DNA from: Deltaproteobacteria bacterium | GTDB lineage: Bacteria > Myxococcota > Kuafuiibacteriia > Kuafuiibacteriales > Kuafuiibacteriaceae | Assembly (NCBI GenBank): GCA_040218735.1 | Contig: JAVJQW010000038.1 | Span: 224,001-288,000 of the forward strand | DNA: 64,000 nt | Direction: 5' to 3' | The notes under the pieces: model-generated | Told to the model about the DNA's origin: nothing | Seen by the model: only the letters and a program-made list of their open reading frames with translations | Databases searched by the model: none | Translations under genes and position numbers: made by a program | Part shown: piece after piece, positions 15,656 to 17,299 of the stretch | Position numbering within the stretch: the stretch's first letter is position 1 | Layout: each line of letters opens with the position of its first letter

Positions 15656-15662
15656 AGGGGAT

Positions 15663-15916
15663 CGGATTCGGACACGGACTCGGATTCGGTTTACGGACAC
15701 GGATTCGGTTACGGACACGGATTCGGACACGGATTCGGTTACGGACACGGATTCGGTTACGGACACGGATTCGGACACGGACACGGACACGGATTCGGAC
15801 ACGGACACGGATTCGGACACGGACACGGATTCGGTTGCGGACTCGGATTCGGATTCGGACACGGACTCGGATTCGGCTACGGACTCGGATTCGGTTACGG
15901 ACTCGGATTCGGAATC
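15663..15916. repeat. (CGGNNN)n hexamer tandem array, about 42 units
   Basis: Units CGGATT/CGGACA/CGGACT/CGGTTA with one 1-nt slip; intergenic. Confidence 0.95.
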
Positions 15917-15950
15917 TGCTGGCGGCGCCCCTCGCGGAGCGCCGCCGGCA
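15917..15950 (-). other. GCGA-tetraloop hairpin 3' of the left four-helix-bundle gene
   Basis: Minus strand reads TGCCGGCGGCGCTCC-GCGA-GGGGCGCCGCCAGCA, a 15-bp stem with one mismatch and one G-U pair. Confidence 0.85.
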
Positions 15951-15960
15951 TGACCTTCGC

Positions 15961-16314
15961 CTAATGCGTCAGCCGATACAGCATCGCGTTAATCCTATCG
16001 ATGAGCTCCATGCTCACCGCGGCGTCCTCCGCCTTCACGTACCCCCAGGCCACCGCCACGCGCAGCGCGCAACGCACTTCGTCCGCGCTGCCCGCAGCCA
16101 CCGTGTAGTGATATGTCCTCGACCCGCCCTCCCGTCGACGCCCCTCACCGAGATTCAGCGCCACCGAGCTCGCGGCGTCCCGAATCTGCTTCGCCAAGCT
16201 CGCGTCCTTCTTTCGGATCTTGCTCACCACGTCGACGAGTTCCTCGATGAGCTCCACGCTCACCTCCAGAACGATGAACCGACCAGGAGAGGCTGCATTG
16301 TTTTTTCTGTTCAT
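15961..16314 (-). CDS. four-helix bundle protein (23S rRNA IVP / Avd-like family)
   Basis: LAKQIRDAASSVALNLGEG...AGSADE...AWGY matches the family motif QxRRAxxSIxxNIAEG...GSxxE; GGAGG RBS. Confidence 0.9.
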   Translation of the reverse strand: MNRKNNAASPGRFIVLEVSVELIEELVDVVSKIRKKDASLAKQIRDAASSVALNLGEGRRREGGSRTYHYTVAAGSADEVRCALRVAVAWGYVKAEDAAVSMELIDRINAMLYRLTH

Positions 16315-16426
16315 ACCTCCCCCCGGCGCAGGCGGCGTGACGAACGGCCCTCCCTTCGTTCGGTTACTTTGAGTGGAATCTATTCGGTGGCTCGGTCGTG
16401 GTGGGGAATCGGAACCATAGGCCGAT

Positions 16427-16441
16427 CGGCACGACGGTTGC
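16427..16441 (+). promoter_or_regulatory. putative sigma54 -24/-12 promoter
   Basis: CGGCACG-ACGG-TTGC with exact GG-N10-GC spacing; predicted +1 near 16453. Confidence 0.7.
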
Positions 16442-16455
16442 GCTGCACATAAGGG

Positions 16456-16479
16456 ATGAACAGAAAAAACAATGCAGCC
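16456..16479 (+). repeat. inverted copy of the first 24 nt of gene 15961-16314
   Basis: ATGAACAGAAAAAACAATGCAGCC is the 24/24 reverse complement of 16291-16314. Confidence 0.95.
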
Positions 16480-16616
16480 GTCGGCCGGTAGCTCGGTGTG
16501 TGCACCTCAACCAAGAAGACGGAGAGAGAGTCCTCCCCTTCAATCCTGCAGAAGAAAGAACCTCTCCCGTCAAAGTGCCTTAGGGAGTTGAAACCATCCC
16601 CAGTACCACGACCCCC

Positions 16617-16640
16617 GGCCGAGTCCTTGGTTGGGTTCAC
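16617..16640 (-). repeat. inverted copy of the first 24 nt of gene 16716-17063
   Basis: Minus strand GTGAACCCAACCAAGGACTCGGCC versus gene ATGAACCCAACCAAGAACTCGACC, 21/24. Confidence 0.92.
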
Positions 16641-16654
16641 ACCCTTTGAGCAGC

Positions 16655-16670
16655 GCAACGGACGCGCCAA
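16655..16670 (-). promoter_or_regulatory. putative sigma54 -24/-12 promoter
   Basis: Minus strand TTGGCGCG-TCCG-TTGC with exact GG-N10-GC spacing; predicted +1 near 16643. Confidence 0.7.
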
Positions 16671-16715
16671 GGCCCGCAGACGGTCCTTGTCACGCCCCCT
16701 GCGCTGAAGGGGGGC

Positions 16716-17063
16716 ATGAACCCAACCAAGAACTCGACCTACCGCTTCGTGGCGCTCGACGTGGCGCTGGAGATGATTCGTCAGCTCCGAGAGCCGCTTG
16801 CGAAGATTCGAAAGCACGATGCGGATTTGGCGAAGCAGATTCGGAAGGCGGCGGCGTCGGTGCCGTTGAACGTCGCGGAGGGGAGCCGGCGCGCGGGGGG
16901 CGATAGAGCGTATGCGTTCCGAGTTGCGCTCGGGAGCGCCGACGAAGTGCGCGCGGCGTTGCTGTGCGCGGATGCGTGGGGGTACGCGGAGGTGGACGAG
17001 GAGCTACTGGCGACGCTGGATCGCTTGATGGGGCTCATCTGGGGGCTCGGCGGTAGGCGGTAG
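16716..17063 (+). CDS. four-helix bundle protein (23S rRNA IVP / Avd-like family)
   Basis: LAKQIRKAAASVPLNVAEG...GSADE...AWGY; clear paralog of the left gene. Confidence 0.9.
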   Translation: MNPTKNSTYRFVALDVALEMIRQLREPLAKIRKHDADLAKQIRKAAASVPLNVAEGSRRAGGDRAYAFRVALGSADEVRAALLCADAWGYAEVDEELLATLDRLMGLIWGLGGRR

Positions 17064-17065
17064 AG

Positions 17066-17107
17066 GAGGAGGCTCGGCGCCGTCGCGAGGCGGCGCCGAG
17101 CCTCTTC
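17066..17107 (+). other. GCGA-tetraloop hairpin 3' of the right four-helix-bundle gene
   Basis: GAGGAGGCTCGGCGCCGTC-GCGA-GGCGGCGCCGAGCCTCTTC, a 19-bp stem with two G-U pairs. Confidence 0.9.
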
Positions 17108-17117
17108 GATCGCGACT

Positions 17118-17285
17118 CGGAAACGGAGACGGACTCGGATTCGGACTCGGACTCGGACTCGGACTCGGATTCGGATTCGGACTCGGATTCGGACTCGGAT
17201 TCGGATTCGGAATCGGACGCGGAATCGGAATCGGAATCGGAATCGGAATCGGAATCGGAATCGGATTCGGTAACGGATTCGGACT
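17118..17285. repeat. (CGGNNN)n hexamer tandem array, about 28 units
   Basis: Units CGGACT/CGGATT/CGGAAT; ends in hairpin GGATTCGGAC-ttggt-GTCCGAATCC (17275-17299). Confidence 0.95.
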
Positions 17286-17299
17286 TGGTGTCCGAATCC

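Follow-up and report, generated by a model that had tools for sequence, protein, structure and literature searches.

An inverted copy of the gene start upstream of PF05635 four-helix-bundle genes: a candidate fold-back leader element in the Myxococcota

How can a gene keep itself from being expressed by transcription that enters from outside? In the insertion sequences IS10/Tn10 and IS50, fold-back inhibition shields the transposase genes from external promoters. The protein family PF05635 takes its name from open reading frames (ORFs) in 23S rRNA intervening sequences; its relatives also include the Avd proteins of diversity-generating retroelements, and stand-alone PF05635 genes are common, and multi-copy, in many bacteria. 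Both subjects meet in a 64,000-nucleotide (nt) stretch of DNA from Deltaproteobacteria bacterium (assembly GCA_040218735.1, contig JAVJQW010000038.1, positions 224,001 to 288,000 of the forward strand), called here the window, whose own numbering is used throughout. It carries two divergent PF05635 genes, and upstream of each lies an inverted copy of the gene's own start region. Our favoured but tentative reading, to which we would give somewhat less than an even chance, takes this copy as one arm, the upstream one, of a stem that folds back as in IS10/IS50 and would silence read-through RNA while an internal promoter escapes. A subfamily of PF05635 genes probably has this stem as part of a conserved leader element.

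The reference list of PMC13181058 gives Davis, Simons & Kleckner (1985) for the protection of IS10 and IS50 from external promoters. Those elements resemble the present one in three ways: the translation start lies in the downstream arm of an inverted repeat, a native promoter (predicted in our case) stands between the two arms, and the element inserts, or in our case appears to have inserted, into foreign transcription units. Unlike them, our element comes without a transposase, and the gene it would protect encodes a small four-helix-bundle protein; its arms are longer (20-32 nt), its loop holds two mirrored sigma54-like boxes of which the better one faces outward, and it is known from sequence alone. 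With the 23S rRNA intervening sequences it shares the protein family and a place in a long stem structure within RNA that is foreign and heavily transcribed. The present genes, however, are free-standing and have protein-coding neighbours; the predicted promoter region, not the ORF, is what the stem encloses, and rRNA plays no part. We regard the leader element as a variation on a known principle of regulation, with a twin-box core that is unexplained. As a conserved, family-specific control element with covarying arms it gives a handle on how PF05635 genes are expressed and spread. It is also a natural test case, both for the self-protection of a gene from outside transcription and for the role of a conserved GT variant of a sigma54-like box.

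Two quasi-palindromes at the gene starts

The left gene lies on the minus strand, and its first 24 nt, from the ATG onwards (16291-16314), recur perfectly (24/24) and in inverted orientation at 16456-16479. This copy had been pointed out in a first-pass annotation of the stretch; it is borne out by the sequence and by a repeat finder, which reports an inverted repeat of 28 nt with one mismatch (Table 1). The annotation had also remarked that the copy tracks its own gene like a barcode. That remark holds as well, since the right paralog has its own inverted copy, matching at 24 of 28 positions, and the two proteins (49% identity) differ most at their N-termini. The mini-ORF that the annotation saw opening in the left copy, MNRKNNAAVGR followed by a stop, fared less well: it is present, and it is kept in two other near-identical genomic copies, but it is not a conserved feature. 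The copied start codon is lost elsewhere, being GTG for the right gene and CTG or TTG in a related genome with two paralogs (G015), while in another (G010) the copy is one base short.

Could repeats of this kind be expected by chance? As a control, 1200 random places of the same genome were scored as the repeats were. A score of at least 25, that of the left repeat, was reached once in 1200, a score of at least 17, that of the right repeat, three times, and a score of at least 15 five times. Each repeat is moreover the outer part of a longer quasi-palindrome. Folded as RNA, 201 nt of the left region give a single long hairpin (z -5.9) and 134 nt of the right region a single hairpin (z -7.2), and in both cases none of 200 shuffled sequences folds as well. 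Comparison with Rfam returned no family, only chance-level microRNA matches far below the gathering scores, which fell in the tandem arrays of the window and, once, in a related locus (L045).

The two proteins themselves are ordinary members of a known family. They clear the curated PF05635 cut-off of 33.8 bits with scores of 56.9 and 47.4, and that of TIGR02436 ('four helix bundle protein'), which is 24 bits, with 56.3 and 51.5.

What lies between the arms? Promoters read by sigma54 have the consensus TGGCACG-N4-TTGCW, in which the GG is near-invariant, and transcription starts 12 nt after the GC. In both palindromes the loop is laid out in the same way: an outward-facing box adjoins the upstream arm, and a gene-facing box, in which GT replaces GG, adjoins the downstream arm. 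The sigma54-like box that the annotation had placed upstream of the left gene was located and is the outward one. Over the 64 kilobases (kb) of the window the GG pattern occurs only at the palindromes, which alone is weak evidence because 0.84 matches are expected by chance; the GT pattern has two matches, both in palindromes, with 0.13 expected. Among 28 distinct elements of the box type, all 28 have the outward box (GG-N10-GC, resembling the consensus) and all 28 have the gene-facing one as GTCAYG-N4-YTGCGC. The outward boxes are thus like sigma54-dependent promoters in having GG and GC at the right spacing, and an rpoN gene is present in the genome (contig C9, 168658-169134), whereas the conserved T for the second G sets the gene-facing box apart from the sigma54 consensus. 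Neither an activator gene nor a binding site for one was identified, no search having been aimed at them.

The position of the arm relative to these boxes is informative. At 27 box-bearing loci the perfect downstream arm starts 7-14 nt after the gene-facing box, and the start codon follows 0 to about 35 nt further on. Because the spacing between arm and box is held at 7-14 nt while the position of the ATG varies, the arm appears to be tied to the predicted transcript start; it would begin at about position +1 of a predicted sigma54-type promoter. That the match in the window begins exactly at the ATG would follow from a predicted message that is almost leaderless in the studied genome. In another family (f14) the arm corresponds to the 5' untranslated region (UTR) and ends with the Shine-Dalgarno site.

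In the box-type elements the downstream arm is also immediately preceded by a G-rich tract (GGGRTGRGG-like), which in the window lies at 16705-16711 and, on the minus strand, at 16319-16325; the loci L069, L043 and L078 are further examples. Short-loop variants that have lost both boxes keep the tract too.

Table 1. Features of the two palindromes, the gene pair and the surrounding unit (window coordinates)
Feature	Position	Strand	Basis
Start-covering arm of left gene (4 nt upstream, ATG, 7 further codons)	16291..16318	-	repeat pair I5, score 25
Upstream arm (copy); on the strand of the left gene it is complementary to that gene's start	16452..16479	+	repeat pair I5
Upstream arm complementary to the right gene's start	16617..16644	+	repeat pair I6, 24/28
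Start-covering arm of right gene	16712..16739	+	repeat pair I6
Outward-facing sigma54-like box (GG-N10-GC), left palindrome	16428..16443	+	pattern search
Gene-facing GT-variant box (GTCACG-N4-CTGCGC), left, 7 nt before arm	16326..16341	-	pattern search
Outward-facing sigma54-like box, right palindrome	16653..16668	-	pattern search
Gene-facing GT-variant box, right, 12 nt before 20-nt core of arm	16689..16704	+	pattern search
Left PF05635 / TIGR02436 four-helix-bundle gene, 117 amino acids	15961..16314	-	Pfam, E 2.8e-15; NCBIfam TIGR02436
Right PF05635 / TIGR02436 four-helix-bundle gene, 115 amino acids	16716..17063	+	Pfam, NCBIfam
Whole unit (array, terminator-like hairpin, left gene, two palindromes, right gene, terminator-like hairpin, array)	15656..17299		empty site and copies
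Tandem array, period 6/12/18 (CGGATT/CGGACA type)	15659..15913		Tandem Repeats Finder
GC-rich terminator-like hairpin 3' of left gene	15921..15946	-	read by eye
GC-rich terminator-like hairpin 3' of right gene	17066..17107	+	repeat pair I11, 17 nt arms, 94%
Tandem array, period 6 (TCGGAA type)	17117..17283		Tandem Repeats Finder

The element in related genomes and its fixed orientation

How far does the element extend beyond the studied genome? A DNA search with the 471-nt region among 40 relatives gave a single weak match outside it. As the DNA itself is not conserved there, proteins were searched, and a profile built from five relatives matched in 50 of the 401 genomes sampled from the phylum. 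A single, narrow peptide pattern led to 5 related loci in genomes and 1 in metagenomes; the searches at family, order and class level covered the same 20 genomes, and the related records include Myxococcales and Polyangiaceae. The apparent internal TGA in matches from six genomes (G271, G197, G241, G187, G225 and G371) was considered as recoding and rejected: it is the gene's own stop, which the profile overruns by two positions.

In all, 97 gene starts were examined, 93 of which could be scored (at least 200 nt of upstream sequence). An inverted repeat over the start region scored at least 17 in 37 of the 93 and at least 15 in 43, to be set against the control of random places with the difference in target window in mind (71 nt in the control, 76 nt in this survey). 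The sequences of the arms vary from locus to locus and yet remain complementary, and the same architecture is found in other genera and families. In G010 the arms are complementary at 23 of 23 positions; the two paralogs of G015 have 29-nt arms with compensated double changes; and among the paralogs of G194 and G197 a 9-nt patch exists in four versions, all fully compensated. An RNAalifold consensus of 24 elements is one long hairpin that includes the boxes, with both-sided changes in 6 of 27 pairs. Covariation between copy and gene start across homologs, which the annotation had proposed as a check, is therefore present, although the independent events are fewer than these counts suggest because the loci fall into few clades.

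Both boxes are found in the loop at 4 loci of the studied genome's own family (f1) and at 27 loci of f14. The G010 element has only the outward box, in a 39-nt loop. Other lineages lack the boxes altogether and keep a hairpin with a stem of 19-32 nt and a loop of 11-55 nt, the base of the stem being the Shine-Dalgarno site or the start codon (f19: G046 and G068; f21: G112; f20: G049:C25; f4: G022; f14: G083; f17: G078, with three loci, and G124; and the loci L043/L044). What stays constant across the phylum, in at least six families, is that an upstream arm can pair with the Shine-Dalgarno site and/or the start codon. No description of the palindromic element was found in a literature search at the level of abstracts.

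Is the element a switch? The annotation had listed as its first option an invertible promoter, in which recombination between the arms flips the loop so that the canonical sigma54 box faces the gene. The anatomy does invite this idea. Inverted repeats, perfect over 24 nt in the case of I5, enclose a promoter-like box (I5 around 16428-16443, I6 around 16653-16668), as in fimS of E. coli and the invertons of Bacteroides, where inverted repeats surround promoter-like sequence just upstream of a gene, and after a flip the canonical box would stand at an unchanged distance from the ATG. Unlike those switches, the element occurs in a single orientation, has no recombinase nearby, uses the gene's own start as one of its arms and has arms that differ from locus to locus. 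A combined two-box pattern with the GT box beside the gene accounts for 24 of 24 matches in five f14 genomes, the control pattern for none, and by coordinates all 24 matches lie just upstream of a PF05635 gene and on its strand. None of 48 loci with a repeat score of at least 12 has a flipped loop, and the three copies of the unit in the studied genome share one orientation. Contigs from 4 public runs of 4 studies (X1, X2, X4 and X6) contain no inversion joint, although rare forms could escape contigs; they bridge both palindromes in the reference orientation (X4 record 17 spans 16150-16480 and X1 record 5 spans 16589-16759). A Pfam scan of 14 nearby ORFs (10.5-21.8 kb, roughly chosen; a more distant gene would fall outside it) found no recombinase. 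The invertible switch is therefore not supported, is largely refuted for the majority form, and is in our judgement very improbable.

Contig ends at the repeat were also considered as a sign of inversion and rejected. Two contigs, C43 and C13, start a single nt ahead of the ATG, and two others, C33 and C70, start within the left gene. The first 141 nt are identical in C43 and C13, and likewise in C33 and C70, 141 nt is the usual overlap of contig ends in this assembly, and 96 nt are shared between the two kinds of end. The breaks are thus explained by ordinary repeat collapse at k = 141 and give no evidence for inversion.

Fold-back insulation and the alternatives

What, then, would an upstream copy of the gene start do? 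Under fold-back insulation, RNA entering from upstream would carry both arms, whether it came, for example, from the paralog's predicted outward-facing promoter or from neighbouring genes. The upstream arm would pair with the opening ~25 nt of the message, which comprise the start codon and first codons in the studied genome and the 5' UTR with its Shine-Dalgarno site in other families, and the pairing would bury the translation start. Native mRNA, started by the predicted promoter box in the loop, would have the first base of the downstream arm as its 5' end; lacking the upstream arm, it would be translatable. The element would in this way insulate a duplicating, inserted gene cassette against outside transcription. 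In the divergent pair each gene would, in addition, be exposed to the outward box of its paralog.

Among the options of the annotation the closest to the evidence is a stem that hides the start codon in a longer leader, given the complementarity of the upstream arm to the start region in at least six families. It would apply only to transcripts entering from upstream: with the arm anchored to a box in the loop, the native mRNA probably starts downstream of the copy, so that only entering transcripts would fold shut. Insulation against read-through would be sensible because the unit is an insertion between convergent genes and is present three times (see below).

Several points weigh against fold-back insulation. 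The internal native promoter is so far a prediction, and the gene-facing box, with GT for a near-invariant GG, may be no promoter at all. The outward box is more canonical and conserved across two families, yet the model has no necessary role for it. Loops of 11-30 nt leave no room for a promoter, so that the mRNA of such hairpin-only loci would always be locked unless processed. Stems of about 20 base pairs or more are substrates of RNase III, which may be a candidate for that processing. A further difficulty comes from the mismatches in the stem. Counted by eye in in-register rows with at most 3 mismatches, they amount to about 12 C.A (on the sense strand), 1 G.U and about 14 transversions, partly non-independent. 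Selection on an RNA stem of the sense strand would not be expected to leave more C.A than G.U, but the test is confounded and carries no conclusion; GC-biased change in an unconstrained, T-rich upstream arm can be another source of the C.A mismatches. A first comparison of wobble pairs had been uninformative, the arms being A-rich and T-poor. Finally, the match between the arms could be maintained in the DNA by quasi-palindrome correction, with no selection acting on RNA.

Could the copy be a relic without function? An old inverted duplication of promoter and gene start, kept matched by template switching of this corrective kind, would have no need of a role. The mismatches of the upstream arm do accumulate in the GC direction, as in an unconstrained copy, and the start codon of the copy is often lost. 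Such a neutral origin is all the same decidedly unlikely: arms of 20-32 nt persist in at least six families with different sequences, the fixed asymmetries between the two boxes are kept between f1 and f14, and the base of the stem tracks the ribosome site.

The same mismatches would be G.T on the template strand (in-register rows), which would fit the possibility that the quasi-palindrome acts as folded single-stranded DNA, a hairpin or cruciform. It could be a strand-specific hairpin promoter or a site used in copying the cassette. The Frpo/ssi single-strand promoters of conjugative plasmids are likewise long imperfect hairpins with promoter elements and conserved mismatches. In the present element the whole region of 120-200 nt is self-complementary, boxes included, the two boxes pairing with each other in the fold; the mismatches are conserved at fixed positions of the boxes; and the unit is inserted and multi-copy without a recombinase of its own. 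Yet Frpo/ssi work with sigma70 on transferred single strands, whereas the present element has sigma54-like boxes and lies in the chromosome, and some of its relatives do without boxes. A function in DNA only would leave unexplained why many independent lineages have the base of the stem at the Shine-Dalgarno site or the start codon. It also fits poorly with the hairpin-only variants and with G010, whose single box would fold on itself, and nothing was found that points to a stage of life as a single strand. We consider a DNA-level role quite unlikely.

The outward box, for which fold-back insulation has no use, is central to another proposal. Here the two boxes would be twin divergent sigma54 promoters with identical initial transcribed sequences, and the outward one would make an RNA that shares the 5' end of the mRNA. 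Such an RNA would be antisense to the incoming leader, including its inhibitory arm, and could be a decoy, an 'unlocking' RNA or a block to polymerase; the proposal overlaps with the small RNA that the annotation had offered as its second option. In its favour are the outward box with its GG-N10-GC in every one of the 28 distinct elements with the arm close behind, the presence of that box alone in G010, and the confinement of the two boxes to the palindromes in the window and to positions upstream of PF05635 genes in the 24 combined-pattern matches. But beyond the copy there is no conserved RNA body, terminator or mini-ORF, usually only a tandem array on either strand, and matched arms are kept in the hairpin-only lineages that lack boxes. 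On balance twin promoters are unlikely as the explanation of the copy. A composite of the two ideas has only a small likelihood in our view: a self-insulating, duplicating PF05635 cassette of myxobacteria-like genomes, bounded by hexamer arrays, in which a sigma54-driven outward RNA, antisense to the inhibitory arm, would unlock the message, so that translation would take place only when a sigma54 activator fires. The remaining probability we leave to explanations outside those listed.

The inserted unit and its setting

The two genes and their palindromes are the centre of a larger unit (Table 1). In G001, a genome of the same genus, the convergent genes that flank the unit have stop codons 4 nt apart, as against 1.64 kb in the studied genome, and the unit is absent (C308:1-3171, around 1672-1706). 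The two genomes thus differ by insertion (or deletion) of 1.64 kb between the convergent genes, and, with an empty counterpart site in G001, we read the whole unit as an insertion. The studied genome has three copies of the unit, 90-93% identical over the intergenic part, and homology among them stops inside the tandem arrays. The left genes of the further copies lie on contigs C13 and C43, the intergenic region and right genes on C33 and C70. When G001 was searched with the flanks of these four contigs, that of C33 alone gave a match; a different gene adjoins it in G001, so that it does not amount to another clean empty site. This insertion status and the multi-copy state of the unit are a further handle on the spread of PF05635 genes.

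Does the unit bring its own means of movement? Among the 14 nearby ORFs the Pfam scan matched only PF05635, Rieske, NlpC/P60 and TrkH, and found no transposase and no transfer genes.

The arrays are a feature in their own right. CGGANT-like arrays of period six flank the unit on both sides, and in other genera arrays of other repeat units adjoin the palindromes. Of the 27 relatives that could be scored, 20 have a period-six array no more than about 200 nt outside the upstream arm. Relative to the outward box the arrays run on either strand. They are not confined to these units, as the studied genome has 28 tandem arrays of period six in all; beside 21 other hexamer arrays of that genome no long hairpin was found, the two matches there being array-to-array. 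At two loci, L062 (G369) and L068 (G279), a long ORF, which may resemble transposases, stands just beyond the upstream arm in the place that the array takes at other loci.

Two more PF05635 genes of the studied genome lie outside the repeated unit (C39:37223-37516 and C9:276456-276764), and one of the two matches the family profile best. PF05635 paralogs often come in pairs in the phylum, mostly arranged tail to tail with the palindromes on the outside. Convergent pairs occur in G197, G194, G297, G046 and G080 and a divergent pair in G271 (contig C1); the head-to-head arrangement of the studied window is the rarer one.
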